A stretch of 56,736 nt of DNA, filler included, from Sphacelaria rigidula (taxonomy: Eukaryota): the NCBI GenBank assembly GCA_964200075.2. It is 6 parts of 6 records of this genome, joined end to end, with 100 filler letters (N's around TTAATTAATTAA, not from the genome) between each part and the next. Parts side by side here need not be neighbours in the genome. Positions count along the whole stretch, not along the records: positions 47,365 to 56,736 come from CAXNAA020008650.1; 5 more parts are not named here. One strand, 5' to 3'. Shown one piece after another: positions 5,561-56,736 of the stretch. Positions within the stretch are counted from its first letter, which is position 1; the number at the start of each line of letters is the position of its first letter. The notes under the pieces were generated by a model. The model ran no database searches, was not told the origin of the DNA, and worked only from the letters and a program-made list of their open reading frames with translations. The translations under genes were made by a program, and so were the position numbers.

Positions 5561-5760
5561 ACTAGGGCCGAAACTCATAAGAGTAGGGCGGCGTGTCCGT
5601 TGCGACAGTTCGACGGGTGGTTTTTGTGGGTTCAACCCCCATACTGCCTTGAGCAGAGCTTTCCGCACGCTCGAGGCGCCTGCCCGACATGACTGTCGTG
5701 AGACGGTCTGGCCGAGCCTCTGGGTAATCGGCACACGAGCCCGCTTGCGGTGCAAGTTGT
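5561..5760 (-). repeat. ~200-bp interspersed repeat (family C)
   Basis: cgcaagcg.g.tcgtgtgccgatt.ccc...ggcgcctcga.cgt...ccctag. Copies at about 3110-3308 (+) and 51735-51865 (-). Confidence 0.8.
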
Positions 5761-8401: not shown

Positions 8402-9373
8402 TCATGATCTTGCATGCCGTCGTCACATGACCATCAACCTCGCATCCCAACGAAGCCGGGGCGGAGCACGCCGGGTTATCGGTGGACCAGGGGCAGGGGG
8501 GGGGAGAGGTGTACTCATTTGTCGCGTGCCTTAGTCAGGGTGTGTATGTGTGTGGGCGTATTCATTTGTTGCGTGCTTTAGTCATTTGACAATTGACCAC
8601 GCATCCCTTTCAAGCCGAAACACTTGAGTCAGGGAGGGGAAGGAGGGGGGGGGGGGGGCAGACTGTTTCACGAACGTTCCTGAAAACAACTGCAACCCGG
8701 CATGATGATCTGCCTAGTATCTCCGGTAAGGCATGGACAATGAGCTTGAACAACCCAGCCTTGTGTTCGACAACATGGTCATACACCACTCGTCGATACG
8801 TTTTAGCAGACGTATGGCGATACTTTCAGGTTTAAACTTGTCTCCACTGCACGAGCCAAGCGTAAACGATTCTGTGGAATTGTCTCTTTGAGCTAGTATT
8901 ACACGTGTTTGAGAGCGATTGGTTGTATTGTATTCCTCAACAACGATATAAAGAAAACAGCATATTTCGCTGTTACCGCGGCAGAGCACCCCGGTGTTTT
9001 AGTGGTACAACCGCCGCCATCAGGGTGGAAAGGATGCGGGTTTGATTCCTAGCAGGAGTCTTTCTACAATACCTCCCCCCCGCCCTCCCCCAAAACCACG
9101 AAGAAAATGGTCACATAGCGAGCGCCTGATGCTTGGTTCCAGGCTGCATGAAGCGCTTCCTGTGGGCGACATTGGCTATAACGACCCCTAAGCGTGGGAA
9201 TTCCCAGCTGCTTGTTGTGCTCGGCTTTTTTCATTTCGATTTACGTGTAGATTTTCTTGACTCCCCAAACCGACCACTTTGTTTTTGGGAGGGAGGGAGG
9301 GGAGGGGGGGGGGGGGGGGGGGGGGGTGACTGATCATGCCGGCAATAGCCAAAAAACCACAAACCCCGCAACC

Positions 9374-9473
9374 NNNNNNNNNNNNNNNNNNNNNNNNNNN
9401 NNNNNNNNNNNNNNNNNTTAATTAATTAANNNNNNNNNNNNNNNNNNNNNNNNNNNNNNNNNNNNNNNNNNNN
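9374..9473. other. Artificial contig linker (N44-TTAATTAATTAA-N44); also at 18847-18946, 28320-28419, 37793-37892 and 47265-47364
   Basis: Identical 100-bp spacer with stop codons in all six frames. Confidence 0.98.
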
Positions 9474-18117: not shown

Positions 18118-18946
18118 TGAAAGTGCACGATTTGCCGCCACCTACGTACGTACCCGCGCGACACGATGGGGAAGCAAGGGGAAAAGGGCAACAGCAAGCC
18201 ACTATCTGCACGACGCTTGGCTCTTTCTGGGATGAGTCGGGTTGCGTGTCCCGATCGGTGGGCTGTTGTGGCTCTCCCTCGAAAAAGAGAGCACATTCCC
18301 CGCACGACCCGACCATCTTGCACTCGGTCCGATCTTCGCCCGCTAAGGTAATACCGGCAACTTACCTTCAAATTTCCGGTGTTGCTTTTGGTTCTGTCCC
18401 TCACGTTTGTTTCACTCAATTTTTTTGTCTTTGGTACTCCCCTTGGTTCTCTTGTTTTTGTTACTGTTTTCTTTTCTCTGTCTGCGTCTCCGGCTCTGAC
18501 GGATCTTATTCCGTTATCTTTATCCTTCAGATTGATTGGGTGTGGTGGTTCTGGTTCTGTACGTTTTCGTGTGTCTTGTTCCACGTGAAGACGCGGACGG
18601 CTATTATTCTTTGCCGTCGCGCGTTTTCGGGGGGATATCGGATCATGTACTCTCGCCTGCATTGGGTTTGACGTCCATCCAATATTTCCAAGCGTCGTCT
18701 GAAGTGAATCGGTGTTTTTGTAAAACGGTATCACTTCGAGACGGAACGAGCAGGGTGAGGAAGGGAGGGGAGTCGGGGGGGGGGGGGGGGGGAAGGGGGG
18801 GTTCTTGGTTTTCAAACGTGGTGAAATTCGGTGAACGGGGGAAGGGNNNNNNNNNNNNNNNNNNNNNNNNNNNNNNNNNNNNNNNNNNNNTTAATTAATT
18901 AANNNNNNNNNNNNNNNNNNNNNNNNNNNNNNNNNNNNNNNNNNNN

Positions 18947-19399
18947 AAACTGTATTACTCGTCGTTTTCGAGCATCCAGGTATTTTCTTAGCTGCTACCA
19001 TCTGTACTGTTTCCAACCTCTCCACCAACTTCCCGTTCCCCTCCCATATTTCTACTGCATATTCCAGCTTTGGTACGTTCACGTTCATCAGGATACATGT
19101 CTTAATCCTAGTGTCTAGGTGCGGGTCTCTGAGGACGACGTCCAACTTGCCTATCTGTGACTTACCCTTTTCTTTTACTTTGTTAATGTGCGCATCTCAA
19201 GAACAGTTTCTTGAGATCTCCACGCCAAGGTATGTATACTGGTCTACATACCTTGGCGTGGAGAGCTAAAGACACTGTTCTTGGAATGCACTCATAAACA
19301 AAGTAATAGAAAAAAGGGTAAGGCACAGCTAGGCAGGCTGGACGTAGTCCTCAGAGACCCGCACCTAGACACTAGAATTAAGATATGCATCCTGACGAA
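18947..19399 (-). mobile_element. Decayed LINE fragment with a fold-back duplication
   Basis: LRDPHLDTRIK...PKLEYA.EIWEGN.KLVERLETVQM.AAKKI.GCS peptide. Segment 19084-19399 forms an inverted repeat. Confidence 0.8.
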
Positions 19400-19730
19400 G
19401 GGATGGGGATGGGGGGGAGGTACCCATTCGTTGCTTGCCTTAGTCATTTGACCATTGACCACGCATTTCTTTCGAGACAGAGCAGAGTGGGGGGCGGGGG
19501 CATGGGCGGAGGCGGGGCGGCTACCCATTCGTTGCTTGCCTTTGTCGTTTGACCGTTGACCACGCATTTCTTTCGAGACAGAGCAGAGTAGGGGGCGGGG
19601 GCGGGGGCGGGGGGGTACCCATTTGTTGCTTGCCGTTGTCGTTGGACCATTGACCACGCATCCTTTTCGAGACGGAATATTTACTCATGACCTTGCATGC
19701 CATAGTTATAAGACCATTGATCTCGCAGTG
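19400..19730 (-). repeat. Tandem cluster of a short C-tailed interspersed repeat (3 type-A copies and 1 type-B copy)
   Basis: Core gtac.cattyGTTGCTTGCC...TTTGACCATTGACCACGCAT. Other copies at 1-90, 1110-1165, 5508-5560, 8395-8610, 28430-28514, 31985-32060, 37893-37950, 39085-39180, 43150-43220, 45010-45062, 50112-50138 and 51612-51712. Confidence 0.85.
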
Positions 19731-28157: not shown

Positions 28158-28960
28158 CTGATATTTTCAGAATAGCGAAAATAGTATTATCTGATTGCCC
28201 TCTCGAGACCTCAGCGCAAAAGGGAAGTGCAAGGTAAGCTGCAAGTATTTTTTTTGTCTGTTTGGTCGTATGAAGCACAGAAGAGTCATCCTACGATAGG
28301 GGGAGGGGTATTTGGTTGCNNNNNNNNNNNNNNNNNNNNNNNNNNNNNNNNNNNNNNNNNNNNTTAATTAATTAANNNNNNNNNNNNNNNNNNNNNNNNN
28401 NNNNNNNNNNNNNNNNNNNCCCCCCCCCCCCCGTTATGCTCCGTCTCGAAAGGGATGCGTGGTCAATGGTCAAATGACTAAGGCAAGCAACAAATGAGTA
28501 CGCCCCCCCCCCCCGTTGTCGTAGCATGACTCTCAAACCAATTTTTGAGTTGGGTGTACAATCCGATTCGGCAGTCGGGGCTCCTGCACGGGCATGGTGA
28601 ATTATTATTTGAATCCTGATCCCAAGTACTCAGGCGACTCGATTGCCACAATAATGGAGCGAATGATCCCCTAGGACACTGGGATCCCTGACAACAGGTG
28701 CAGAGCACAGAAAAACGAAAGATCTATATCTTCGCAAGTTTCATGATAATAACATATACTTCGAAGTAATATACGTGTGCAAAGTGCAAAGCTTCAGTCT
28801 TTGGGGTTATTGTAGTGAAGTCTGCGTACTGTAATGAGCGTGGACAAGCACGTCAAGGGGAATCAAACTTGTCGCCTACAACCCGAACTGCCCTCAGCAC
28901 ATTTTTACCGTCACCCCGGGCCGGAATCTTACCGCTACCATGTTGTTTATACATCCATAC

Positions 28961-29439: not shown

Positions 29440-32122
29440 CTAACAGGCAACATCACGCTCCTATCTCGGTCCCTCCACTCGATACTGAGGGTCGTTCAGC
29501 GGGCTGGCAAGTGTCTCGCAGTGCCGCGGTTTCCAGGAAAAAGAAACACAAAATGCCGCACCAAAGATATTTTCATTTTTTCCTTACGGTTTTCAATTTG
29601 AACTAATCGCTCAGACCCGCAGTAGTGTCCTGAAATGTCCCGCTAAGGAGGACGTCGGAAAAGACCGGCAGCGGGGTTCGACTATGTGAGGATCCTTTAG
29701 CAGGGCATCTTTTCACGCGTATTTTTCCCGAGTTCTCCCGATCAAACTCCCGGGAATAAATTCCGGCGATAGATTTTCGACGAAATCGGTAGTCATTCTT
29801 GATCCTTTCACAGGCAGAGGTGTGCATTTTTTTTTCAAATAGGCATTCCCTTCAGTCTTTTTTCAAGTGAAAGTCATGCCGATTCCACAAGTGGACCACG
29901 TCCGGCGATGAAAGGGTCGAATCGATCTTTCGCCTGCCATGGTCAAGAAATCTGCTCTCAAACTCTTCGGAGGAGAAAAAAATCCACACAGATCGTAGAT
30001 ATCGGGGGGGTACACCTGTTCGCAAGAACGACCCTATGTGGTGTGATCCTCGTCATCGACATCAACCACCACTGCCTACTCCAATCTCCTCTGGATGAGG
30101 GGTACCTCTGTCGCGCAACTCCGCACAATAGCAGCCCAGGCTACGAGCTGGGCCAGCCGTAAAATTTACAACCGCACAGCACACAACAGCTTCTTCTCAA
30201 GTTTCCCGAGTTAGCCCTATTCAACCCTTGCTTATGGAAGACGATTTTCGTTTTCGTGGATCGGCATCATTTTCACTCATTTCCAATTCAAAATGATGTC
30301 GATTCACGAAAACGAAAATTGTCAATGGGTTCCAAGAGGGGTAAGAATATCCTGTATTTTCATAGTATATCCCTATAATGTAATATATTTCCCCCATTGG
30401 AGCGCAGAAAAAAAACAAGATACAGTATATAAATGATGCTGGGATTCAGGGCGATTTCTTTTTACGACGGCTGACAGAACTTTTGCCAGGGGTCTTCGTG
30501 CCGTTATGTTTAGGTGCATCATTCATTGAGCATTCTCGCTCGTTTCGATAGCCACGCCCCCAAAGGGGTCGCGTGAGCACCAAGACTCATGTATGTGGTC
30601 GTACGTTTCTACATTCACGCGGGCGGGCATATTCATACTCGAAGCTGCGCACCATTCCTGTGGTGTGGGAAAGTTGAGTGAGTACGGCACGCAATAGAGG
30701 AAGCACTGCGGCGGGCTCCTTGCGCTACGGGTAGTGCACGATAGAGGATTTGTTTTTTTCCCGTTGAGTCGCTTGCACTCCGTGAGTACGACGATGTCCA
30801 TTCAACAACATCGAAAGTTGATGACGGAGAACCCGTATGAGCAAAAGCGTCTGCATCTCTACACGCACACCCTTCACCTCCCCTAGCCGGATCTTCTTAA
30901 ACCCACCTCTCCTTGTGCGGTGGGACAAGGCCAGGAAGAACATCTGGCAAAACATTGCCGTAACGAGTGCAACTGAAGTTATCATTAACAGAGCTACATA
31001 CAGTTACAGCAGAGTAGATTTACGGGCGGTTTTTCACATGAAAGACGAACAATGCAGCGATCAACATGGTCATCAAGACATGACGAAACACCAACAGTAC
31101 AGCCGGCAGGCACCAATAGTACTGTTGTGATGGAACTCCCATCACCACCCTCTCAGGGGTATTGATGGCGGGTTTATTTTTTCCGAAAAATTCGAAACTT
31201 TCGGGGAGGGGGGGGGGGGAAGAAATCTCCGAAAATTGTGTGATCATATTTCTCAAATAGGCCAGGTAATAGATCGGTTCAAAACTGCCTACAGACTTCT
31301 CCGAAAGTCTAACGTCGGCGCTTTTTCAGCAACTTATGTTTTGGGAGGAGTCGGGAAAGAAATCCAATTCGTCGCTAAAAGTTGTGGTGAAAAAGGGAGC
31401 AAATTACCCTGCGAATAAGACACCTGAACACAGATGAACAACACAATTGCGTAATAGTCTGAACCTTGCAAAAATCCCTCAGCGATACCGTGCGACTCTG
31501 TCATGAGCCGACCATTCTCCCCGGGAGGCGCTCCCCCACCCCCGGACACTGGACAACAAGCGCTCCGTCTTCTCGACGACCGATGGTTGTTATGCCTCAA
31601 ACAGCCTCACAGTATTGCCAGCACTAGAGACACCAGACACCAGCTACATATGGGTTTGTCTACCTACAGCAAAGGACAAGCGATGCTATGGGGAAACAGT
31701 TCTTTCACACGCTGTTCGCACACACACAGTCCAACCCAACGCAAGTGAGCAGGGGAGTGTGCACGAAAATGTCCGAGCTAAGCCAACAGCACCAGGCGTG
31801 AGGCAACAACGCTACGCCCATAGCGGGCGTGTTCCCAATGCAGGCACACCTTCGACGCCGAAAAAAAAACAGAACAGGGCGGTTGAACCTTCTTCCCCTG
31901 CACATCTAGGTAGGGAGCCAATAGAGCATTCGGGAACTGAACCAAGCACCGTCCAACTACACGGGTGCGAGGGCGGGAGGGGGGGCGTGGGGGGCGTACT
32001 CATTCGTTGCTTGTCTTAGTCGTTTGACCATGGACCACGCATCCCTTTCGAGACGGAGCAGGTGCGGGGGAGCGGGAGGGGGGGAGGGGAGGAGTGACAT
32101 ATTCCATCACTGACGGAGAGAA

Positions 32123-37737: not shown

Positions 37738-39224
37738 CCGCCGCGCGTCGGCGCGGTCTCGGGGGCCGCGGGTGGCTGGGGGCGGCCAGCAGNNNNNNNN
37801 NNNNNNNNNNNNNNNNNNNNNNNNNNNNNNNNNNNNTTAATTAATTAANNNNNNNNNNNNNNNNNNNNNNNNNNNNNNNNNNNNNNNNNNNNGATGCGAG
37901 GTCAATGGCCTGATGACTATGGCATGCATGATCATGAGTACACCCACCCCCCAAGTGTGTAAAATTGATCACCATCGGGGATCGGATGGAGAACAAGCGT
38001 TGCAGCGCGGTCCAGGTAAATAGAATAATACGTGCAACCGATGGTTTTCCTGTAATTGGGCCGCCATGTAGGCGGACAAGTATGCAAATGTGCGGGAGTA
38101 TTGACGAAACGACGATATGTACATGTAAGGCTGGGATGGGCAGTATATGGGTTGATCGCTCGATACACGGACTCATCCGGAGGATGGAGATTCCATGTTG
38201 CAGCAGTACAGTACTAGTCAGTCTACTTTCGGCTGCGCATATCAGGTGTTCGCCTGTCTGTGCGGCGGGATTGTCTATCGTAATACCACCGCATTGTGTG
38301 AAACGGAACGTCTCCAGACACGCTATCGCACAAAGACTGGGGGACGTACTCGGTACTCAATGCAGTACAAAAACATCATCGCCAAAAGTGCGCCAATCGA
38401 GCAGCGGCGGTGCCGTATGTTACCAGGTTAGTCTGCAGTTCACAGCGATATGCTCAACTCGCGCTGATTTGGGAAACTTGAAGAGTTGTGGTGTGGAGAG
38501 AGAGTGTGGGATTTACTGCCGGCCCAACTCGTAGTACCCGCGGTCGAACAAGACAAAACGAGGAGGAAAAAAGACGCTGGAAGCTACTTCTCGTCATGGG
38601 GGCAAGAGTATCATCATATTTTTTTCTCGAGATTTCGTCGAAAGGGGCTTCACAACATGGACAAAAGCAGGCTTCTCAAAACTGTTTTGGGCTCTCCATC
38701 ATACAGCGTGAAATAAGGCAAAAACAGCGCGCGGGGACGGAGAGGAGGAGGAAGCAAGACACGCCTGCACACACAGAAAAAACATGTGTTCGTTAATTTA
38801 CACGCCTACACCCTTTTGGAACCCTTGATGGGAAAGTGACGATTTTACAAAGTCCCATATGCGAGCTTTCGTCACCAGGGAAACGTCACTTGGAGTTTGG
38901 TGCACGAATATGTCACATTAGCATACTAGAACTTAGAGTGGCGCACCGTTTTGGAGGGCTGCATCAACACTTGGAGAAAATTGACCATATCTTACCAAAG
39001 AAGACGTCAATTATGAATCGTCACTTTTTCATCAACGGTTCCAAGAGGGTTAAACCCGCTCGACAACATAAATTACCGCACGGGGGGGGGAGGGGATGCG
39101 TGCTCATCTGTTGTTTGCCTTGTTGTCTCACCATTGATCACGCATTCCTTTCGAGACGGAGCACCGTCCCTACTCCTAATAGGGCCACCTTCAACATTCC
39201 GGCGCTCATTGCGTTTCTTCCATT

Positions 39225-41637: not shown

Positions 41638-42010
41638 CTGTTTCACATGTGTGCGTGTGTGAGTGTGTGCGTGTGTGCGTGTGTGTGTGTGTGTTGTGTT
41701 ACGTCGTTGTGCTGTGTACTGTTTTGTGTTATCTTGTTTTTGTCGCACACGGAAGTTTGGGGGTACTAGAGATATAGTGTACGGGCATAAAGGGCGGAAA
41801 TTTATGAGATTGATTTCAGCGGTATGTGTGTCTTGGCCCTTGGAGAATCATGTGTCGTGGTTTGAGACCTATGTGAGAAAAAAATGGTCGACACTCGAAA
41901 AAAGGTTCCAGGGCAGAGGGCGGATGAATACATGCTTCAGGTATAGGCAGGATACAGCTATCCACACACCCCGTCGCCACTCCAGAGACCCAACACGAAA
42001 TAGCATAGAC

Positions 42011-42202
42011 CTGCTCGACGAGTTTCCGCCGCTTGAGATCTTTCGCCGGCTGAGCGTCCAGCGTGGTCCCGGCCGCCAGCTGGCTGAGCAACTCTCGCAC
42101 CAAGTCTTTTACCGCCCCGTCACCCCCGTTAGCCCCGCGGACCAGCTTGCTTCCCTCCCCTTTGGCCACCCACTTGTTCTTCATGCATTGTCCAAGGCCG
42201 AT
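42011..42202 (-). CDS. FARSA: PheRS alpha, exon
   Basis: IGLGQCMKNKWV...VKDLVRELL...DLKRRKLVEQ, phase 0 at both ends. Confidence 0.9.
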
Positions 42203-42797
42203 CTGGATAATGGTTTAAAGACAAAGCACGATAATCGCACGATGCATTGAAATTTATTTACACACGTTATCTTTCCGCATAAAGATTACTGTGGCTTCAC
42301 CCACCCTTTGGCCGCCTGGGTGCGTGCGTGCGCGTGTGTGTGTTCAGCTCTTGCACCGACATCATTTTCGCCTGAGAAATGACTGCTGGACTGCCAGACT
42401 CAGGTGTCCACGACAGGGTGCCTGTAGGCTTGAGCAGTGACGATCTCTGCTTCGAAATAAGGGGAGCTAAAGAGCCTTCCAGAGAAGCAAAAAAGGGCGA
42501 AGAATCAAACAATTTACCACGTGCTACACACGTGCGCCAAATCACTTCAGCTCCAAGTATCACACAGAACAGAGCTGCAAAAACAAAGTCATGGAAACGA
42601 AACAACGAAGGAGCGGGGACAACCGCGAAAAAAACCCGGCAACAACGACCGTTCCCCAACCCCTCCCCATTCGCTACAACAGCCACATCACCCTTACAAC
42701 CACATCACGTACAGGGGCAGTCCCAGTACCAGCAGCACACGAGCTACACTGAGGCAACACAGGTGGGGTCAGACACTCTGGGATACACCACACACAC

Positions 42798-42908: not shown

Positions 42909-43496
42909 CTATCCACAGTTCGTACGTACGTCCGCACAGCGTACGTACACGTTATGCACAAACCCCAAGTGTAGCTAACATGTATATATCACAGTGTAAC
43001 GTACAATATGCATACTTTTGTAACTTTCAACGTACCCGTAACATCTGTGGTACAGACTGTAATCAAGCTAACTGTACTGTACTGTTGCTAGTGTATCGTA
43101 GGGCACCTACTATAGCAACTGCGCTATCCGCGGTATCTGGCGGGTACTTCCCCTCCCCCGAAAAACTACGTGGTCAATGGTCACCACCAAGGCAAGCATC
43201 ACATGAGTACGACCCCCCCTCTCCCCCTCTACCCCCCCGGAAAACTGGAGTAGCCTCCCTCTCAGGCCTCGTCCATTATGGCTCCTGGCCTACAGTTGAC
43301 GGGCCCCCTAGATCTACGGTATATTCTATGGTAATTAGGGGAAAGCCCCCCTCAAAACTAGGATACCCCCTCCCCCTCCCCCCGCCCCCCACCCCTCAGC
43401 CTCGCTTATGATGGCGAGGTTGGCCTGCAGCTGGTAGAGACCCTTGGAGGAAGTGAACAAAATGAAAGCCAAAACAAATGTATTACACCCACTCAC

Positions 43497-43643
43497 CCCT
43501 TGACCTTCTTTGGATACAACCAAGTACTGCGTCTGGATGAGCGACGACTTCACCATGTCCTCTGCCTCAAGGGAGATCAGCACCCCGACGAGGTCTGTGT
43601 GCGGACACCCCAGCGTCTCCGCGAAGCCCCACGTGTCCTCGAT
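43497..43643 (-). CDS. FARSA: Cytosolic phenylalanyl-tRNA synthetase alpha subunit, N-terminal exon (start exon not identified)
   Basis: CAG/GTGAGT bounded: IEDTWGFAETLGCPHTDLVGVLISLEAEDMVKSSLIQTQYLVVSKEGQG, the eukaryotic PheRS-alpha N-terminal domain. Confidence 0.85.
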
Positions 43644-45629
43644 CTGTTTTCAGTTCACGTGTGTTTGTATACGCCCGGCAGAAGATCACTTCACCTCTCA
43701 GAAATCTTCGGGTTATGAGGACGGGTATCGGAACAAGATAAAAAGTTTGGTGGCCGGCAATCGGCTACTGTGCGGTGGGCACGGTGCGCTTCGCTCTCGC
43801 TAGATTCACTCGCCGTCAAGAGTGTTTCGAAATAACCACCAACCCGGAGTTCATGATACTGAAGCCATTCCAAAATGGCAAACTCTTTTCCATCATTTGT
43901 CCGCGATATGTCATACGGATGAGGGACAATGCCCAAACGCATCGCACGTAGGTTTGGTGCTGCAATTCTGAGCAGATATGGCGTATAAATGGGAAGGTCG
44001 AGCGACCAACGGGCAACACGGCAACAGTCTAACAGACGAACTGCACGGGCTTCAAAGAGCCAACTCTTGTAACAATCATCCTGGTGTAAGCAGCTCAGCT
44101 GCGCCTCCTACATCTTCGGATTGAGGTGTTTCGTATCGTGCTTCAACGACGGTACACCACCCACAGGTGTATGCACATGTGTACGCATGGGTGCCGCCGA
44201 TACTAGAAAAAAAACAGTTCCAGAAATGAAGACACCACGCAAAAAGCACTTGGAACCATGGGGCAAAAACAAGACAACAGGCGGTGGAAATCATCATCTT
44301 GAAGAAATTTGGATGATCGGCAAATCCGGTGCAGACACGAGCCTGCAAAAATGGTGTACGAATCATACGTACAGTGCAAATATTAAAGACGTTTTGGGTA
44401 AAGTTCTCACGTCTACATGAAAATAAGGGCCCCTATTCACGGGTTTAATTTTTTATACTTTCCATCCGTATTTCATCATCATATTGATGGAAATGGATGA
44501 AAAATCAAGTCCGTTAAAACGGACCCTACGTAGATAGTTAACATACTCCCCCGCCTTTTGCTTTTGAGGGTTAGCGTCGGTCAGCGACCACGCTGTGAAA
44601 CACGCTCCTCACTGGGTAGACTAGGCAACCAGGATACCCTTATGTTTTCGCTTGCGTTATTTTTACGGTAACCATGATGTTGGTCGAGCTAGACCATATT
44701 GTGCGGGGTGGAAAACCCGAACACAGCGCAAGGGGAATGACCGTACTACGAAGCGTTTATGTGGTGAGACATCAATGACGTAGGGTGTAACGCGTGGCTG
44801 TCTCTGCAAGTGGCGATACCAGAAATTGAAGCACCTCATCGGGGGCTGTCATCAATATGAAAGACGATCAGTACGCTACGGGCCCAACTATCTTCGCAGG
44901 ATGGAGCTCACCCTTTATACGAATCGCCGAACACGTCACGACGCTTCGCGCTTGATGATTGCAAGTCTGGTCCGGCAAAAAAAACGGCGTGCCCCGTCCC
45001 GGCTTTGTAGGGATGCCAGGTCAATAGTCTCATGACTACGGCATGGAACGTGATGAGTACACCAGCATTTTACTGTGCAGCAAGTAGGCCTCTTCTGGTC
45101 CAGATGCACCAAAACTCTTACATTACGCAGTAGTAGAACGCATGTGCCAACACAAGAATCTATAGAAGACACACCAAGGTATATGAAGACCATAGAGGCA
45201 ACAGTTCAATCCTTTTATACACCACTCGTAACTTGATCGACAGTTGGTTGGGCTGAGGGTGGATTCGGAATGGTTGTTTCTGGTAGAGATACAGCAGTTA
45301 CATGGAAAAGACCGTTGCAACATATAGACCGTGCGTCACAGTCACGTATCAGCCACGGTCAGCAGCACGTTGCCTGAGGGCATTTAACTTTTCACAATGA
45401 AGTAATAGCGATCGCCAAATGTCGTACAGATACTTGGGGCATGCATGGGTGCATACTTTGATACACAAAGCTGTTACTGAAGAGCTCAACAGCGTGACGT
45501 ATATATTTGGTGGGGAGTATAGTTCCTCTAGGTGGGGCTCGCGGGTGTAATTGGGTGGTGTTTTGATTTCGTGCCTGAGGTTGCATTCGCTACAGGCTGG
45601 TTCACGGTGATCACCCAAAAAACACTCAT

Positions 45630-46960: not shown

Positions 46961-47495
46961 AGAACAGAGAAAACATGATATATTGTCAAGAATACAGTTT
47001 TTCTATTTCGAGCATCAATACCCACGGAACTGCTGAGTTTGAGGGTGATCTGAGCTTTTCTACAACAGATCAAGGGGACACCATCACGAGGCTCCCTGGG
47101 TCTTTCCTGCGTATCATTAGTGGAAATTAGACGACCCCAGCACCCGACATCACCGAAACATCACGGTTTCGGGTATAATTCGACCCCCGTAGTAACCGTT
47201 TTAAAAATATGATTTTCTCATTAGATTTCCGTGTCGATGACGGTTACTACGATTTGAAGCATATNNNNNNNNNNNNNNNNNNNNNNNNNNNNNNNNNNNN
47301 NNNNNNNNTTAATTAATTAANNNNNNNNNNNNNNNNNNNNNNNNNNNNNNNNNNNNNNNNNNNNCTCACATTCCCACGCGTTCCACGGTGGAAATCATAC
47401 ATTACGAAGAAAAAACCCAACGCATCGAAAATCGAACCCCCGTTCTCTCCACCCCTATGGCGATAGTCGGACCATTACACCACCGGGGCGCGGCA

Positions 47496-48182
47496 CCATT
47501 AGAGTCGGTCTTGGCCAGAACGGCAGTTTTCAACAGGAATTTTGAACGGCTTCCACTAAAGTCGGTCTTAGACCGACTATAGTAGAGCAAGTCATTCCAA
47601 CGCGTCAACCTCCGCCTAGCCCTCTTTTGGGGCGAAAATCGACGGAGAAGGGCCAAAAGAGCAGTTTTCGACAGAATTTTGAACGGCTCCCATTAGAGTT
47701 GACCTAAGACCGATTCTAGTGGGAGCCATGAATTTTTGATTAAAACTGCCTTTTTGGCCCTTCTCCGTCGTTTTTCGCCTGAAAAGAGGGCTTGGCGAAT
47801 ATTGACGCCTTGGAATGACTTGCTCTACTCATCGAGGCCGTTCCAGGGCAACTTTGCATTTCCCGCTGGCCGCGCTTTCATTTTTGGCCTAACACGGATT
47901 TTCAACAAAAAACGGTCGAGCGATCAATAAAAAGGGAGAACATTTGATCACCTGACCGTTTTATACTGAACATCCGTGTGTGGCCACTCTTGGCCAAAAA
48001 CGGAAGTGCGGCCAGCGGGAAATGCAAAAGTTGCCCTATAATAGAACGGTCTCAACGAGTAGAGCAAGTCATTCCGAGGCGTCAACATGCGTCTAGCCCT
48101 CTTTTCGGGCGTAAATCGACGGAGAAGGGCCCAAATGGCAGTTTTAAACAGGAATTTTGAACGGCTCTGTTTAGAGTTGGCC
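47496..48182. mobile_element. Cluster of the same Tourist-like MITE: one full copy (47708-48182) plus truncated copies
   Basis: The full copy has a TAA TSD on both sides (47705-47707, 48183-48185). The upstream partial copy ends at the shared TAA. Confidence 0.85.
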
Positions 48183-48197
48183 TAAGACACGCCCTTA

Positions 48198-48372
48198 GGC
48201 CAACTCTTATGGAGGCATTAAGAATTTTATTTTGCGATAATTTTCAACGACTTTTCTTTCTTCTTTGCCGTAGTTGTGTATTTTGTGCGCGTTCGCCATG
48301 ATGACAAAGAAAAAAACACTCCTCTGAAATTGTTGCAAAATAAAATTTCAAACGCTCTCATAAGAGTTGGCC
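48198..48372. mobile_element. Short Tourist-like MITE with related TIRs
   Basis: GGCCAACTCTTATG...CATAAGAGTTGGCC, flanked by TTA/TGA. Confidence 0.75.
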
Positions 48373-49754
48373 TGAGCACTTTATTTTTCGATCGCAAAAG
48401 TGTGTTCGATTTTTTTTGTCGTCGATCTGATACGTGCACCGCATTTATATTCCCAGAAGGCTTCAACTCAAAATTATAATTAGCGGCGCGCGGAGAAGAA
48501 CGCAACGAGGTTGAAAACAATCGTGTTCGATCGAATACATGCGGTCGAAAGGCACGAAGCGGCACTTGACTCCTATCTTACAGACCACCACGCCAGATAA
48601 CACCTGTTCACAGGACCATGCAAACTCCATCCAATTCAATCTCAGCTACCACCGCAATCCTGCAGCATCGAGTACGAATTGAGCCAAGGGATAGATACAC
48701 TGCAGTACAGAAGTTGGTTGTGATTTGTTTATTTTTGTTGGCGAAAACTTGACTTTGCATCTTCTCTCATGGTGGGGATCAGCGACGGAACTGCGTGGTA
48801 CGGTGCGCAGCCGAGTTGCGTGCACGCTCATGGACAGTCGAGGCAGCACAAGGCTGCACGTTGCTGAAGTCCTCTTCACGTCGCATTGTAAAAAGAGAGA
48901 ATTGACAGTCCTGGGCTGTATGCACTGCACGTTGCCCGCTTCTCTTCTATATCCTCCTGAACGAAACACGCACACACGCACCCAAGACACTGCTTGCAAG
49001 CAATGCAGACAGTACAGACAGAGACAAAAAATTCCGGCTCCAAAAGTCACCGAACGGCGGCAAATCGGCTGTTAATTTCACCGAACCCCGAACGCGGGGA
49101 AATATAATTTTAGGAACACAGAAAGGCCTGCAAACAGGCAACAACAAACACCGCGCCTATTACTGTTGTTGATTGAAATCATATTGATATGACGCACGCA
49201 TATGTCGCGCTTACACGATTCAGACGCCTGCGGTGTAAGGAAAAATAAATATACTCGCGTTACCATTTGAACGTGATGTGTTGCACATATACAATAAAGG
49301 CTGCGATTGCCAAATAATAGACAACCCAGAAAGAGACGAAGAAAAACCAAAAAACTGCGACGCCAAAATTGATCGAACTCCAAGAAATCGTTGTGCAGTC
49401 TCGTGTCACCTGTGTTCATCCCGTGTATGCATGTATACGTTAAATTTCCGTTTTTCAGAATCAAAGTGTCAGATCCACCACCAGGGCTCCGCGTATTGCC
49501 TATTACGCGCAAACTTCCAGGCACTGACTGCTTGGGTCAAAGGTCGAATCTCGCCCTCGTCGAACGTGAACGATGGTGGGAAAACATTGCACGATCTTAT
49601 CAAGCTTTCGAGAATGGAAAATGTCGCAGGGTGAAGTAGAGCTGAAGGGCTTTGTGAAGTGTACTGTTTCAAGAGTACGTCTAATTGACCCGCTTGCACG
49701 GGAGCTTTCACACGCAAGCTTAGTTAGAAATATGTATGTATGTATGCAAATCAC

Positions 49755-49907
49755 CTGCAGATGAGCGACGTCGATGATACGGAACTCGCGACCGCCCGCG
49801 TCCTCGCTACCTCCTGGAGGCGGCAAGGGGATCGCGGCTTGGATAAGCAAGCCCCGCACTCTGGCGTCCCCCGGATTCCGCGCCGGTCCTTCTCGTCCGA
49901 GCTCAAT
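49755..49907 (-). CDS. Probable exon of an unidentified gene, likely the next exon after 56089-56247
   Basis: GCAG/GTGA bounded, 51 codons, GC-rich, phase 0: IELGREGPARNPGDARVRGLLIQAAIPLPPPGG...FRIIDVAHLQ. Confidence 0.55.
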
Positions 49908-51009
49908 CTGCGTGCCCGCAACCCAAAATAAACAGACGCACATAAACGAGTTGAGCGTGTATCGATCCAGAGAGAGGGGGGGGAGGGGTGCGAGGAAAAT
50001 GATCCATGGGACTCGCGCGACACTCTATCCGCCACGGTAAACATGTCCATATGACCGGGAAAAATGGTCTTTGGGACGCACGCTACAAACAACGTTTCCG
50101 TGAGATTGGGAGTACTCATGATCATGCTTGCCATAGTCAGATTGGGAGTAGAGGATACGATTGACAGTGAAGAGCGGTCAGTGAATGAGTCGTTTCAGTT
50201 CCGGAATGCCCCTCCACGAGGCCCGATATGCTTTCTGCCGTAGCTTGCCTCTGAGGCCCTTGATATCCCTGAGTAAGATATCGACGTGTAGCTGTGAGCA
50301 CACGCTAGTGAAAGAGGCAAAGAAAAGCACACACGGAATGAAAAACTGGCTAGGTCAAAGCGAATTACCGAAGGCACTCTCAATCAGCGCTCTACTCTCA
50401 AGTTCACGAAAACGTTGTTGACACTCGATCCGCCAAGGTAAACATATCTCCGTGATCCGGAGATCACCATGCGTGCCCTTGGACAGCTCTTCGTGCACTT
50501 GAGTGTGTGTTCATACCAAAAGAAGAAAAGGTTCGCGTGACGACAACATACTGGATTAGGTACAGCGCGTAACTACCACGTCTTCGCAACGAGAAAAATG
50601 CCGGCATTTTTTTTCGCTACACAAGGTAGCTCTGATCGGACGATGCAATGGAATATATCTTGACGTCTGCGCAGCGTGAGTTTTACCCACAAGGTAAAGC
50701 GTACACAACATCCCCTCACGTTTTTTTTTTTCGCACATGACACGACGAGGAAAAGCTTTGAAAACGGTGGATAACTTTTCACGCGTGCCGTGCGAAGGAA
50801 TTAAATCACGGCAGTATATATATATATATATACGGCACGCGGTTGGACCGAAATACCATACGACACAAGCAACGATAGATGATTTTGAAAAACCAAGGCT
50901 TCTTTCTTTACCGGAAAACAAAACCCCCACGCGTGAACGTGGTACGTCAAGGTACACGCTTCGCACACTGCCCATCCTCGACATCCCTAATCTGAGTCTA
51001 CTGCTTGTC

Positions 51010-52950
51010 AAACAGAATCCCGGCTCCAAGCCAAAATGACGTGTATCACGATGCGCCTTGGAGACCCTCCCGCATTTTCTTGATCTGGTCCTTGGACTCA
51101 ATGGCTCCGCCGTTCTCGAGCGCCGGGTACGTCCGGCAGCGAGGCTAGTTTACCGGCGTTGAGCTACAAAAGTATCGCTACCCCTAACCCTAATCCCGAC
51201 CCAACGCATACCGAGCACCCTCGGGCAAGGACGGTACATACATTCCCTAGGCAAAGTGCGGCCTTGGTAGACCCCAAATCGGCGCCTGTGGCGTCGATTT
51301 CAGCGAAAAACGCGTTCTGCGCATGCGAGGAGCACACGGTCCTTGCAGCCCTCCTAAACATCCGATTCTCGTTGATCAGACTCAAATCGAGTAATATCAA
51401 CCCCGGGCATTTGTGGCCCGATGCCGGTAAACGCTACTGCCGGCCGCAGCCGCGGGCTCGTCGTACGAAGCGACGAACCCGCCCGAGCGCTGGCATCGAC
51501 TCCCTCGACTCCCTCGCACACCATCGACTCGAGCATATTCTATCATGCAGGTTCTTCTTGGGCCGACGCTTACAAGAGCATGGCGGCGCGTGTACTGCTC
51601 CAAGTTGATGGAGGGGGGTGGGGGTGGGGGGCGTACTCATTTGTTGCTCGCCTTAGTCGTTTGACCACTGACCACGCATCCCTTTCGAGACGGAGCACCG
51701 TTCCTACTCCTAGGTGGAGGGGGGAGAGTTAGTGGGAGCACCCCCCACACTGCCCCGAGCAAAGCTTGCGAACGCTCGAGGCGCCGTCCCCGGATAACTG
51801 CCGCGAGGCAGTCTAGCCGAGTCTTCGGGTAATCAGCACACGAACTCGCTTGCGAGGTAAGTGTTGGGTTGGGTTTCCTCCTTCCGTCAAGGAAAGGAGA
51901 TTTTTTGTTTTAATCATGCAGGTTCTTCGGAACTCCGCCATTGATCCGACGCCGAAATTTCAGCATCGACGACATCCCTGAGGAGTACTCGATTCCCGTC
52001 CCTGCGATCTTCAGACGAGGACTTCGGAGACAGCGAAAGGGTGTGCCTGCGGTTGCTGCGTACCGAGTGTTGCAGAGCCGACAGCTCCGACAGCTCCGCA
52101 GGCAAGCTGCCGAGGAAATGATTCATCCAGCCTTTTTGCCTGGCGGCGCCATGTCCGACATCGACATCCCATCAACTCACCAACCGCGCTCCCACAGCAC
52201 CTGCCTTATCTCCTACGGTTGATTACCAAACTCATCTTCAGTCGCTCTCTGATCGTGAAACGGGAGGGGGGCGGGGGGGGCGTCCACGGCGAAATACATG
52301 TTCTGCGTGTTGCCAAGCTCCGGCTTTAAATCCACCGTCTTCGTAGTGACCCCCGGGGATGAATTAAGCGCTCGAAGCTGCCACGTGCAACTGCATCTTC
52401 AACTCGTGCGGGCCCAAACACCCGACAGCCATGCCAGCATCAAGAAGGATCAGCCTTCTGCTTGCCACAGTACTTCACATTCATGTTTCCCTACGTGCAA
52501 TCCGCTCCCTAGACATGTTGGCGTGCCCTGCAGCGTGGTCTGTCTGGCTCGATCACGTCAAAGCAGTCAGTCCTCCGGGTCAATTACTTGCTCCCCCCCA
52601 CCACCACCCTTCCTTGTTTTTACCGTCGCACGAGCGAATCGCGAGCCGGAGGTGGTCATGAGACGCTCGCGCCCTCCTCCAGCGCCGGTGTTGTCGTTGG
52701 CGGTGGCGTTGGCGAGCTCGCCCCTCCTACAGGGGCAAACAGTACCCACGCAATTCGATCCTGAACGGCGGGCACCATCTCGACCGGCCCCTCTTGTCTT
52801 CCTCCTCAACCGGCGCACACCTCTTACTACCCACTCAATCCCCTCGCGTGTGAATGCCTTGTAGATGCTCTCGCTCTGACTGACCATGGTAAAACACAAG
52901 AAGGTCGCATCAACAGACGTCGGGATCTCGACGTGTGTTGGTGCGACCTT
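51010..52950 (-). pseudogene. Decayed IS630/Tc1-mariner-related (Sagan-like) DDE transposase
   Basis: Ordered motifs recovered across frameshifts: Q(S/N)ESIYKAF.REGIEWV, GP.EMV, GKNKEGWW, DCFDVIEPD, DHAAGHA, MNVKYCGKQ, QP*EIRQVLWERGW, SELSALQH, SPK, IAGTGIEYS, LKFRRRIN..VPKNLHD, LGRVRRF.RRAR, RTY.ALE...KAHR..LEPGF. The family assignment is from remembered motifs, not from a search. Confidence 0.72.
51146..51435 (-). mobile_element. Small non-autonomous element containing a TTAGGG tract, inserted in the transposase pseudogene
   Basis: Terminal IR gtttaccggc/gccggtaaac. It interrupts RRAR...RTY. A similar element lies at about 2020-2813. Confidence 0.55.
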
Positions 52951-53317
52951 CCTGTGTTTTACCATGGTCAGTCAGAACGAGAGCATTTACAAGGCATTCG
53001 CACGCGAGGGGATTGAGTGGGTAGAAAGAGGTGTGCGCCGGTGGAGGAGGAAGACAAGAGGGGCCGGGCGAGATGGTGCCCGCCGTTCAGGATCGAATTG
53101 CGTGGGTACTGTTTGCCCCTGTAGGAGGGGCGAGCTCGCCAACACCAACGACAACGACAACACCGACGCTGGAGGAGGGCGCAAGTGTGTCACAACCACC
53201 CCCGGCTCGCGATTCGCTCGTGCGACAGCAAAAACAAGGAAGGGTGGTGATGGGGGGGGGAGGGGAGCAAGTAATTGACCCGGAGGACTGACTGCTTTGA
53301 CGTGATCGAGCCAGACA
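52541..53317. repeat. 777-bp spacer-less palindrome (inverted duplication of the transposase core)
   Basis: Centre 52925/52926 (cggga|tctcg), arms about 385 bp. About two dozen substitutions and one indel by manual count. Confidence 0.95.
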
Positions 53318-53841
53318 AGCAACTCGTGAGTCAGCGTCCTGATCGTCTGTCGGAGGGTGCACCAGCATTTTGCTGACATTGACCCGAAGGGCTTCGGAAA
53401 GTTGGTAGACGTGGTGCCTACCACTATTGAGGCAGGCGTTCGTGCAATTCCTTGAACCGATGCGTGGGTGAGATACTCGGTCCGGTCGTGAGAACGCTTG
53501 TTGACCTTCTCCTCGCGCTTGTTCCACAATCGCCCGAGACCACGCTTCTGGTGATCGACAAGGATCGTCGACGGTATCCACCCTCTCCCGGTGCTTCTTC
53601 TTGAATCCGCAATCTCCTGTGCAGCACTGAGGATGCCGAGGGAGTTTCAATATGTTTGCCTGTCGCGAGTGTAGAGACGGGGTATGGGAGATCGGACGGT
53701 TTGGCCAGCACGTGAAGCTTTGCCTTCAACAAAGTTTCGTCGAAAAATGAGGCTCGTATGGCCCAAGGGATTTTGTACGAAATTGTTTGAACATTGTGCA
53801 CGTCGAACAAGTCATGAGTTAACTCAGTTATATGGTATAAG

Positions 53842-54299
53842 ACCGTCTTGTATGGCAACCAATCCGTATTTGTACAAATATGAGGATTTCAGCCTGTCCA
53901 CAGTGGATTTTCTCCCGTGAATTGGTTATTCGGACCCCAGTCCTTTGGGCATTGTTTTTCGCCTAGCTCTGAAGAAACCAGATCAATTCTCCTATTTTCT
54001 GGACGCTCACTTTTGGTTTATCACATTTCTGCTCAGATCAGGAGACTCCCGCATCTCCCCTGATTTGGGCCCAAGATTCGGGGGAAAAGCGGGACTCTCC
54101 TGATCTGAGCAGAAATGTGATAAACCAAAAGTGAGCGTCCAGAAAATAGGAGAATTGATCTGGTTTCTTCAGAGCTAGGCGAAAAACAATGCCCAAAGGA
54201 CTGGGGTCCGAATAACCAATCCACGGGAGAAAATCCACTGTGGACAGGCTGAAATCCTCATATTTGTACAAATACGGATTGGTTGCCATACAATACGGT
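53842..54299. repeat. 458-bp near-perfect palindrome / foldback element
   Basis: Centre ttggg|cccaa at 54069/54070. One mismatch over about 200 bp of arm, with more mismatches in the inner 25 bp. Confidence 0.95.
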
Positions 54300-56088
54300 A
54301 TAACTCATCCGGTGGAAAAATTTACCGATGAGCTGTACAGTATAACTCAACCGGTGGGAAACGGCACAACTGAATTGTACCGTGTGACTCCGCGAGTGTA
54401 AAATGGTATTGCTGAGTTGTATCGTACAAGTCAGCCTGAGGAATAATACTAAGTGACTTGTCTCGAGTTAAGGTGAGTTGAGTAGTCCGACGTGTGGAAG
54501 AGTATCTTACGTCTTCTGTCTTATTCATGTATTTCGCACGTTTGATGAAAAGAGTGTAGCAGCCGAGGCCGGAAGGGATCCCTTGAAATATAGAGCAGAA
54601 GAATGCCAAAACAGCTGCTGCCTTTAAGTGGGGCAGATGCTCTGCAGACGGTGTGGCACACGCTACGGTGGTGCGGATGCACGCTGCACAACGAACGTAA
54701 AACTAACGTACAACTAACGTGCAACTACCGTACAGTAGGGTACAGTACAGTCACCATGATCCTATCTTGCCTCTCCGTTAACGCCAAGCGATCTACTTCG
54801 TCTTGCCTGCATTACCTGCTCGTGCTGTCGGCTCAAAATTCTACAACAAGTGCTCCATGTTCACAGCGGACGGATGCCCTACAGACAGCACGGCACATAT
54901 GGCAATATCGATAGCCACAGCACAACTCACGAGAAAATGTTGCGCCGGGGTTACTGACGCCAAAAATGTTCCGCAATATTACTGTCCCCAACGGAGGCCT
55001 AGCGCCCGAGGGGTCGCCACGTTTAGTGCAGACTGTACAACGCACCTGGTGGGAGCGTGGGACTCGTGCATGCGGATGCCGCCGACCCAGACACTGCTGT
55101 TTGCTCTGGAACTTGAAGGCTTACCGCCTCCATGGGCTTCCCGCGATGCCTTAGTTCCCAACTCAGGTGCCACACGAGCGCGAGCCCGCCTCAGCCCCCA
55201 TGCGAGAGGCGGATGGTTGTGAGGTGTAACGAGACGAACGAGCCTTTGGTCTTGTACACTTTAGCCTCAACAGCTGCTTGTGTCACTTCTCATCGTAGTA
55301 TATGGCAGCGACAGAGGTCCTTTCCCATCGCTCATATCTCGGCGAGCTTGGCGCCAAGACGCAGAGCGCACGCAGCGCGCGAGGAAGATCCAAGAAAAAC
55401 GACCGTAGCGGGCCGGCCCCTAAAAGCACAGAAAATCCCGCCGCGTTCTTGGAAATCTAATTGCGCCGCATTCTGTTCTTAGTTTCGCCTTGTACTTGAC
55501 CCAGTACAACTATCGGCACGCGACCTTTTCATTTTGTATGAACAGCACACAAGTACATTGAGAGCTGTCGGGGACACGCATGACGATTTCCCCTTCACAA
55601 AAGATATGTTTACTCGACGATATTTCGCCGCGGTCCTTGATATATGTTCGGTATAAGTACTACGGTATAAGTTTCAGGCTAAATCTCATATATATATATA
55701 TATATATACATCGTTTCCCAAACCTTATTCATAACCATGTTGCGACAATTTCATTTTTAGGTCACCCTCACCCCCTTGCGGCTACACACACCATGGCAAG
55801 TGTTCTCAAGCCGGTGCATCGACACTATTTCCCGAAAAAAAAGTACTATTAATAGCTGACACACCTCACCACCCATGAATTCACCCTGCCAAATAGATGT
55901 ATCTCGTCTAAACATATACCAAATGAGTATACAAGAAGCATACCGCAGAAAAAAAAAAAACGAACACTTGGTTTCTGCAGCATTACGATTTAACCCCATA
56001 CTATCTATCATCCTGCCGGCCTACACCATATATATATATATATATATATATCATGTAGCCGTGGTGTAACGCAACCAAAAAATGGTAC

Positions 56089-56247
56089 CTTGTTCTCCAA
56101 AAGGGTCAATAACGGCGCCCGAGCCTGATCGTGGTGATGGCTGTCTTGCCCCAGGCCCGCAAATGATCCTTGAAAAATTCCGAAGTGAGAGCTGCCGCCG
56201 AGTGCCTTTCCTCCACCACTGCCGGGCGCGTCTCCGACAAAGAGGGC
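56089..56247 (-). CDS. Probable exon of an unidentified gene
   Basis: AG/GT bounded, 53 open codons, phase 0: ALFVGDAPGSGGGKALGGSSHFGIFQGSFAG...PLLTLLENK. No family recognised. Confidence 0.5.
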
Positions 56248-56736
56248 CTTCAGCAAGGCTCGCGCATGAGAAAAGTGCATCGTTTTTCCTGCGGGAGAGG
56301 GAGGAAGGGGGAGGGGGGTTGGGTAGGGGGGTACCATACATATATCGCGCCGGGGGAGGGAATAGGAGTTCGATCGACGTGCGCGGATGCGTGAGGAGGT
56401 GCAAACTGAGGATATCAAAACATCGCGATTCTTTCCTTTCTGAGGCCGTTGCTTCTGTCTTCTTCTATTTCTTTCTTTCTTTATTCTTTTATTATTCTGT
56501 TTTTTTTTCTTCCTGCTCCTGATCATGGGCTGGATTGTTGCAATCAGCTAATGTGGGGTAGTCAATCAATCAATCAATCATCGCCCCGTATAGCGGAGAA
56601 ACAGCGCGGGAAAAGCGAAAAACAGCATCTGAGTGAAACATTGTGAATCGATAGATCGATTGATTGACTTTTTTCTATTTTTCAACAATATGTTTTTCAA
56701 CAACACAGGAGTCATCTTACGATAGGGGAGGGGGGG

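Follow-up and report, generated by a model that had tools for sequence, protein, structure and literature searches.

A transposase-derived fold-back in an intron of the brown alga Sphacelaria rigidula, probably a relic with part of the architecture of a silencing trigger

A stretch of 56,736 nucleotides from the brown alga Sphacelaria rigidula (GCA_964200075.2; six parts of six records joined with filler, referred to at its full length as the window) contains, within an intron of an expressed host gene, a 777-nt palindrome whose two arms derive from the transposase gene of a DNA transposon with terminal inverted repeats (TIRs). The locus lies in the last of the six parts (positions 47,365 to 56,736, CAXNAA020008650.1). 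We regard it as probable that this is a neutral relic: a dead, rearranged copy of a TIR transposon in a host intron, which may give rise to orphan small interfering RNAs (siRNAs) and is not a silencer acting in trans. An earlier reading made from the sequence alone, called the sequence-only reading below, had proposed a candidate siRNA trigger akin to Mu killer of maize. That proposal is only partly supported; of the features that define such a trigger, the inverted duplication of a transposable element (TE) is the only one found, and transcription of both arms together is implied.

The palindrome, at 52541–53317, has no spacer. A repeat search returned core arms at 52593–52925 and 52926–53258 (333 nt, 93% complementary, gap 0 nt), which an outer pair at 52541–52605 and 53253–53317 extends, and a global alignment of 52541–52925 with the reverse complement of 52926–53317 (arms of 385 and 392 nt) gave 362 matches and one 7-nt indel, besides 23 mismatches, of which 16 are transitions. 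The two methods agree on the loopless palindrome that the sequence-only reading had described. Its centre reads GGGA/TCTC, with GATC at the midpoint, and blastn of the palindrome against the window found no match besides its own opposite arm.

The palindrome is genuine DNA and not an assembly chimera. A 346-nt contig at 52753–53098, present in both X1 and X3 (sequencing runs on two samples from a single study), crosses the centre with 0 differences and carries about ten arm-discriminating positions on each side of it. Unique flank contigs (51866–52570 and 53288–53867) each reach exactly 30 nt into an arm, as expected of a graph with k = 31 at the edge of a repeat. Run X4 belongs to another study; its cover of the arms is as deep as that of the single-copy flanks, and the single-nucleotide polymorphisms (SNPs) listed for it include private ones at 52625, 52758 and 53131; no centre-spanning contig of X4 is found among the matches listed. 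X1 is possibly the sample behind the window assembly, and X4 is thus the more independent witness. The centre-spanning contig of X1 and X3, together with the cover and private SNPs of X4, practically excludes an artefact of long-read chimerism or amplification. The argument that some two dozen arm differences speak against a chimera is borne out by the 23 substitutions and one indel, and by the centre-spanning short-read contigs.

Both arms match a family of long proteins, characterised further below, of which P0014 and P0017 are members. A scan with the family profile took all open reading frames (ORFs) of at least 25 codons in the window (n = 1578); its eight best matches all fall at the locus, are collinear and, except for the right arm, all lie on the minus strand. 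In the order of the gene, the parts of the copy are the following.

53470..53565, minus strand: probable N-terminal remnant (about residues 1–32 of P0014, profile 4–39); tblastn and profile match, collinear and on the same strand
52926..53317, plus strand: right arm, an inverted copy of the gene segment of residues about 404–531; profile 417–498, E 2e-12
52541..52925, minus strand: left arm, in native orientation and joined to the rest of the gene; profile 417–496, E 1.5e-11
51913..52540, minus strand: continuation of the gene with the second Asp motif, insertion domain and Glu motif, in several frames and with stops; tblastn, profile 567–747
ORF 52216–52398, minus strand: profile 588–624, E 2.2e-5
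ORF 51917–52171, minus strand: profile 674–716, E 0.0037
ORF 51913–52122, minus strand: profile 717–747, E 2.3e-8
ORF 51437–51652, minus strand: profile 743–773, a weak gene piece at 51437–51571, E 0.023
51145..51912, no strand assigned: high-copy repeats inside the remnant; blastn self-matches and contig depth
51010..51144, minus strand: C-terminal end of the remnant (CRTYPALENGGAIESKDQIKKMRE, KAHRD, LEPGF); tblastn with P0017
ORF 51049–51144, minus strand: profile 775–800, E 0.23

The arms span the gene from the block C.C..YH.GQDES, which holds the first catalytic Asp, to just before EVDHS.GH, which holds the second, so that the profile matches and the motifs named earlier place them in the segment of a DDE transposase between the first two Asp motifs. 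The first Asp itself has been lost, its motif being SQSES on the left and SQNES on the right, with a codon for S or N in its place. Outside the left arm the gene runs on along the minus strand: DHAAGHA, the second Asp motif, begins one base beyond the arm (52540 to 52520), GIEYSSG, the Glu motif, lies at 51996 to 51976 and KAHRD at 51059 to 51045. This continuation had been recognised before and is now accompanied by six further collinear matches down to 51049; tblastn of a family member aligns from 52884 to 51916 (E 6e-27), and P0017 aligns with the C-terminal end from 51138 to 51055 (E 4.5e-4). The right arm ends as previously described, after EPDKQLV: a further 12 bases, to 53329, read KQLV as in the family, and KQLV does not follow EPD in the left arm. 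Beyond the right arm lies the N-terminal remnant, matched by tblastn from 53565 to 53470 (E 3e-4 with P0014, E 1e-3 with P0017) and by profile positions 4–39 in ORF 52990–53646 (E 0.01 over the 1578 ORFs). Profile positions 40–416 are absent from the copy, and the right arm stands in their place.

The arms switch frame in step: at least six changes fall at equal distances from the centre in both, and a stop after ...CLPL is common to them, in line with the shared stop and frameshifts of the sequence-only reading. The continuation is also interrupted by repeats (51145–51912), whose summed contig depth is 2e4 to 1.8e6, as against about 20 in the flanks; by blastn, the repeat sequence of 51613–51869 recurs at no fewer than eight other places in the window. 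As a transposase gene this copy is dead and non-functional: the first Asp is lost, the frame switches at least six times, stops and repeat insertions are present and profile positions 40–416 are missing.

Standard domain searches gave no hint of this family: Pfam returned no match for 12 local ORFs of the window, and a word-indexed protein search at near length yielded 0 of 96 candidates. Only an exhaustive phmmer search with the left-arm ORF against 1.84e9 proteins reached the family; it gave 12 matches at E ≤ 1e-3, 11 of which have the first-Asp block GQDES..Y.REG.EWV..GVRGLRKKTEGPG; the top match, P0001, is a low-complexity repeat protein and was left out of all alignments. One phmmer match led to 25 longer relatives of 708–1081 amino acids (P0013–P0037), which include unnamed proteins of Laminaria digitata, Ectocarpus sp. 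CCAP 1310/34 and Lithocolla globosa. The relatives occur in brown algae, Lithocolla, other protists and marine metagenomes, and clusters of 17–20 members at 90% identity indicate that the family is multi-copy in brown algae. Precomputed Pfam domains lie on the core of none of the 25 longer relatives; transposase models (DDE_3 or other curated Pfam entries) matched 0 of 12 window ORFs, 0 of the 12 first phmmer matches and 0 of 11 long relatives, and a sequence-profile search of the PDB gave 0 matches.

The relationship to known transposases is visible at the level of conserved residues and predicted fold. P0024, P0033 and P0034 (partial coverage or SAP/chromo fusions) as well as P0019 were kept out of the alignments A1 and A2, and P0016 was used in A1 only. 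Over 20 aligned sequences D420, E421 and D536 are invariant and E726 is nearly so (P0014 numbering). The AlphaFold 2 (AF2) model of P0014, built from the 20-sequence alignment, has a mean predicted local distance difference test (pLDDT) score of 79 and places the acidic residues on a strand, at a strand end and at a helix start. With VIA-align the model superposes on the transposase domain of SETMAR (3k9j_A) with Z 15.3 and a root-mean-square deviation (rmsd) of 2.7 Å over 188 of 201 residues, and on the catalytic domain of Mos1 (4mdb) with Z 15.1; the next-best fold is that of retroviral integrase, with Z 8.7. The first seven rows of a Foldseek search are all Mos1 mariner transposase (E 0.011–0.19, none at E ≤ 1e-3), and DDE_3 clusters of a language-model Atlas score 0.96, which serves as a lead only. 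Metagenome loci encoding relatives number 38 in all; three of the six long ones examined (L002, L007 and L009) have TIRs of 29–44 nt around the ORF, forming elements of 3.4–4.7 kb with flanks compatible with a TA duplication.

The derivation of the arms from a transposase is supported because homology to the family, the mariner-type DDE fold predicted for one member and the TIRs around relatives point the same way; the tblastn and profile matches and the alignment of the model with the catalytic domains of Mos1 and SETMAR bear out the identity proposed earlier. The family itself consists of bona fide TIR transposons with a mariner-type core, unusual in length and in the distance between the second Asp and the Glu. 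It resembles Tc1/mariner elements such as Mos1 and Hsmar1/SETMAR in the modelled catalytic fold, in a D..D..E triad with a block HPE..G.GIEY.W at the third residue, and in its TIRs and TA-compatible target duplications. It differs from them in that its proteins are two to three times longer, its core reaches no Pfam cut-off and no PDB sequence match, and some 190 residues separate the second Asp from the Glu (D536 to E726 in P0014), a spacing of about 34–41 residues being usual in classical Tc1/mariner transposases. As a side result, which may prove the more durable one, the arms have led to this family: long transposases of mariner fold, widespread and outside Pfam, whose catalytic domain holds a large insertion. 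The family may correspond to one of Sagan-1, TcMar-1 and TcMar-2, long Mariner-Tc1 families tabulated for Ectocarpus that measure 3.7–4.4 kb and have spliced genes (PMC12477816).

The fold-back within the dead copy probably arose in one event. About 375 profile positions (some 1.1 kb) between the N-terminus and the first Asp are gone, and the 385 nt that follow them in the gene occupy their place as an inverted copy. Both copies begin at the identical base of the gene, around a natural GATC and with zero spacer. Such symmetry would be expected of one strand switch or fold-back during repair or replication, where DNA had broken or a fork had stalled; two independent insertions would not give it. 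Most probably the element had lost its coding capacity before that event, and the arms have since diverged by 6%. At least six frame switches are common to the arms, as against one indel that differs between them, which suggests the fold-back of an already decayed element. That the fold-back arose after gene decay, as the sequence-only reading had it, is therefore likely, not proven: the shared frameshifts and stop fit, while gene conversion between the arms would mimic them. The SNPs of X4 do not suggest ongoing conversion from arm to arm, each of the three listed within the palindrome adding an arm mismatch and none altering both arms (the sites are few). The arms differ by 6.0%, as against a divergence of about 0.4–1.1% between X4 and the window in this region, so the palindrome is judged to be much older than the split of the strains. 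Four arm differences lie within 27 nt of the midpoint, at 3, 10, 16 and 27 nt; they were considered as a sign of palindrome stabilisation, and the numbers are too small for this use.

The whole locus lies in an intron of a gene on the minus strand, which is expressed and relative to which the dead transposase copy is in sense orientation. A joint from 49907 to 56089 is held by one 3550-nt contig of run X6 (depth 116) and is missing from all three DNA runs; that X6, like X7–X9, is RNA is a guess, none of the listed runs being recorded as such. The joint skips 6181 nt with the ends CT..AC on the plus strand, which is GT..AG on the minus strand, where the skipped segment begins GTACC... and finishes ...CAG, and the reading frame is open across the junction. 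The X6 joint, its GT..AG ends and the open frame are the grounds on which the gene is taken to be minus-strand and expressed and the locus intronic. The parts of the gene are these.

56089..56290, minus strand: upstream host exon, at least this much being exonic; a piece of the 3550-nt X6 contig, with the ORF open further upstream
49908..56088, minus strand: host intron of 6181 nt enclosing the whole locus; joint 49907 to 56089 seen in X6 only, GT..AG
49755..49907, minus strand: downstream host exon of 51 codons, phase 0; X6 contig piece 49754–49907

Base 49754 is compatible with an exon end or a GT donor. The splice junction between 56089 and 49907 that had been predicted is thus present in the X6 contig, and of the two phase-0 exons said to enclose the locus the downstream one (49755–49907) was right; the upstream one extends to at least 56290 and does not stop at 56247. 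The exon-2 peptide of the host gene had no match among longer proteins, and Pfam found nothing on the two host exon ORFs. The nearest recognisable coding pieces on the minus strand are the ORFs 41819–42214 and 43338–43649, which match DNA-binding domain 3 (E 8e-6; 26.5 bits, the cut-off being 26.6) and DNA-binding domain 1 (E 0.009), respectively, of the alpha subunit of phenylalanyl-tRNA synthetase (PheRS). Inside the intron, downstream of the hairpin, X6 has low-depth contigs at 52164–52585 (depth 5; it enters the left arm by 45 nt) and 51027–51177 (depth 2.3), compared with 116 in the exons; these may stem from pre-mRNA before splicing, from an independent transcript or from carried-over DNA. 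X6 cover is zero in the bins 52704–53015 and 53328–53639 and almost nil in 53016–53327, which we use as evidence in neither direction, and a depth of 132 in bin 52080–52391, with a loose end at 52262 on a G-run, is left uninterpreted. (TA)n microsatellites lie within or at the edge of the intron at 50815–50832, 55688–55708 and 56021–56050, and Logan contigs break at the latter two tracts.

Because the host gene is spliced across the intron, both arms would be part of every primary transcript, and their presence in the host pre-mRNA is implied. Computed for the minus strand, the 777 nt fold as one hairpin of about 385 bp with a minimum free energy (MFE) of –797 kcal/mol and perfect stretches of 52, 25, 75, 24, 24 and 24 bp, all six of at least 21 bp and together 224 bp. 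Such a hairpin would be a plausible Dicer substrate and may yield 21-nt siRNAs; by analogy, the chances that it is diced look roughly even. Ectocarpus is described as having Dicer, a single Argonaute (AGO) and abundant 21-nt small RNAs (sRNAs) enriched on TEs (PMC12477816, PMC4513859), and is reported to lack cytosine methylation (PMC12477816).

The first alternative is a working trigger in the manner of Mu killer, in which the diced intronic hairpin silences active members of its subfamily in trans and is kept by selection. In effect the locus would be a natural hairpin 'vaccine' against a transposon subfamily, host transcription feeding double-stranded RNA (dsRNA) into a single Dicer/AGO pathway whose 21-nt siRNAs silence, or once silenced, its relatives. 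We consider this unlikely. In its favour, the host gene is expressed and spliced, the duplex has its six perfect stretches of at least 21 bp, Ectocarpus has 21-nt sRNAs enriched on TEs and a single AGO, and the family is multi-copy in brown algae; there are also parallels to Mu killer, where a partial inverted transposase duplication is read through from a neighbouring gene (PMC3440606), and to the Ac/Ds composite insertions (10.1101/2020.01.07.897926). Against it, the arms are heavily decayed, and counterparts that siRNAs could act upon are not in sight: at a likeness of at least 90% the arms have about single-copy depth in three DNA runs, contig depth being a weak measure of copy number; tblastn found no second copy of the transposase in the 56.7-kb window at E < 1e-2; and compared with the 38 loci of relatives, which belong to other organisms, the arms reach 70–83% identity over at most 92 nt, with a longest exact match of 18 nt. 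Nor do the X4 data indicate selection on the duplex, since the three listed SNPs each add an arm mismatch and their density in the palindrome (at least 3 in 777 nt) is not below that in the flanks (3–9 per 580–820 nt), small numbers as these are. With no near-identical copy in sight any siRNAs would be orphans, and visible targets are lacking for the locus as a source of family-wide silencing, which is thus unlikely.

Several points weigh against regarding the locus as a mere relic. Contig depth is poorly suited to counting copies, and near-identical copies elsewhere in the genome are possible; the 38 loci compared all come from other organisms. The survival of a spacer-less 385-bp palindrome to 6% divergence might hint that it is tolerated or used, and arm differences near the centre would also stabilise the palindrome. 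The N-terminal remnant has weak scores (E 3e-4 and 0.01). Finally, the termini of the element were not found in the window: no TIR joins 50000–51100 with 53320–55700 beyond (TA)n runs, and TACAGTG, an end of the Sagan/TcMar-1 type with its TA, occurs seven times in the window, not above chance and never near the locus.

To our knowledge, natural loci that reveal how a transposon is first recognised for silencing are few and all of them from maize, Mu killer and the composite insertions of Ac/Ds among them. By analogy, the present locus may be called a small, old cousin of both in architecture only, which is also how far the comparison with Mu killer made in the sequence-only reading is fair. 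In Mu killer, part of a transposase gene is duplicated in inverted orientation, such that transcription from a neighbouring or host gene yields a long hairpin RNA (PMC3440606), and the locus here is likewise a partial inverted duplication placed for read-through. Mu killer, however, includes a terminal repeat, closely matches the active MuDR and has been shown genetically to silence it via siRNAs and DNA methylation, whereas the arms here are 385 nt of decayed coding sequence lacking termini, with no close target visible. The Ac/Ds composite insertions are inverted duplications of fractured transposon pieces transcribed to dsRNA from a promoter of the element or its flank (10.1101/2020.01.07.897926). 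They share with our locus the transcribed inverted duplication of transposon fragments and differ in that they arise by aberrant (alternative) transposition of an active element, the element here seemingly having been dead beforehand, and in that they give measured siRNAs of 21–22 and 24 nt and heritable repression.

What triggers the silencing of TEs in brown algae has been called largely unknown (PMC12477816), and no hairpin trigger locus of a brown alga surfaced in the literature listings searched. An intronic, host-transcribed hairpin derived from a transposase is a concrete place at which the initiation of TE silencing in these algae can be studied. If the locus did act as a 'vaccine', it would be the first such trigger from an organism that is neither plant nor animal, and would offer a way into how TE silencing starts in a lineage reported to lack cytosine methylation. 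The evidence favours an old, orphaned relic, and the likely pay-off is small.

Two further explanations concern the class of the hairpin. It might be a hairpin-RNA or proto-microRNA (miRNA) gene, giving a few dominant small RNAs that regulate unrelated host mRNAs, inverted duplications being thought to seed miRNAs. In Ectocarpus 75% of miRNA loci lie within protein-coding genes, most of these being intronic and in the orientation of the host (PMC4513859), a setting the present hairpin shares. Its near-perfect, transposon-derived stem of about 385 bp, however, far exceeds a miRNA precursor, which led us to set a miRNA gene aside; heterogeneous products of the siRNA type would be expected, and the sequence comes from a transposase and not from a host gene. 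This explanation is accordingly very improbable.

Lower still is the chance that the palindrome is a mobile fold-back element or miniature inverted-repeat TE (MITE) in its own right. Its arms are long, and a true high-copy fold-back repeat lies only 525 bp away, at 53842–54299. The latter has arms of 222 nt (97% complementary) around a 14-nt loop, a MITE-like summed depth of 8e3–3e4 in DNA runs, and ends CCGTC...TACGG that resemble the CCGTA–TACGG termini tabulated for TcMar-N families of Ectocarpus (PMC12477816); three 42-bp tandem units (54294–54419) follow it. The palindrome, by contrast, has about single-copy depth and is unique within the window, on which grounds it was rejected as a mobile element; its arms derive from coding sequence, the left one continuing into the rest of the gene, and it shows neither separate termini nor a target duplication. 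Least probable of all is an artefact of assembly or amplification, for instance a long-read chimera in which both strands were read: libraries of that type are well known to produce palindromes without a spacer, but arms that differ by 23 substitutions and an indel, a short-read contig over the centre in two samples and the private SNPs of a run from another study leave it hardly any room.

The window holds other repeats as well. The one at 51613–51712, inside the transposase remnant, belongs to a very high-copy repeat of about 85–100 nt that ends in a G/C run, has a summed depth of up to 1.8e6 and recurs at 6–91, 8554–8654, 19388–19708, 28421–28514, 31975–32062 and 39082–39178. A second repeat, at 51729–51869, recurs at 5623–5757 and 3102–3234. 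Five blocks of 44 N, 12 bases and 44 N (9374–9473, 18847–18946, 28320–28419, 37793–37892 and 47265–47364) look like masked or withheld sequence and not like biology; spaced by 9473 positions (the last by 9472), they register as perfect repeats in the repeat search.

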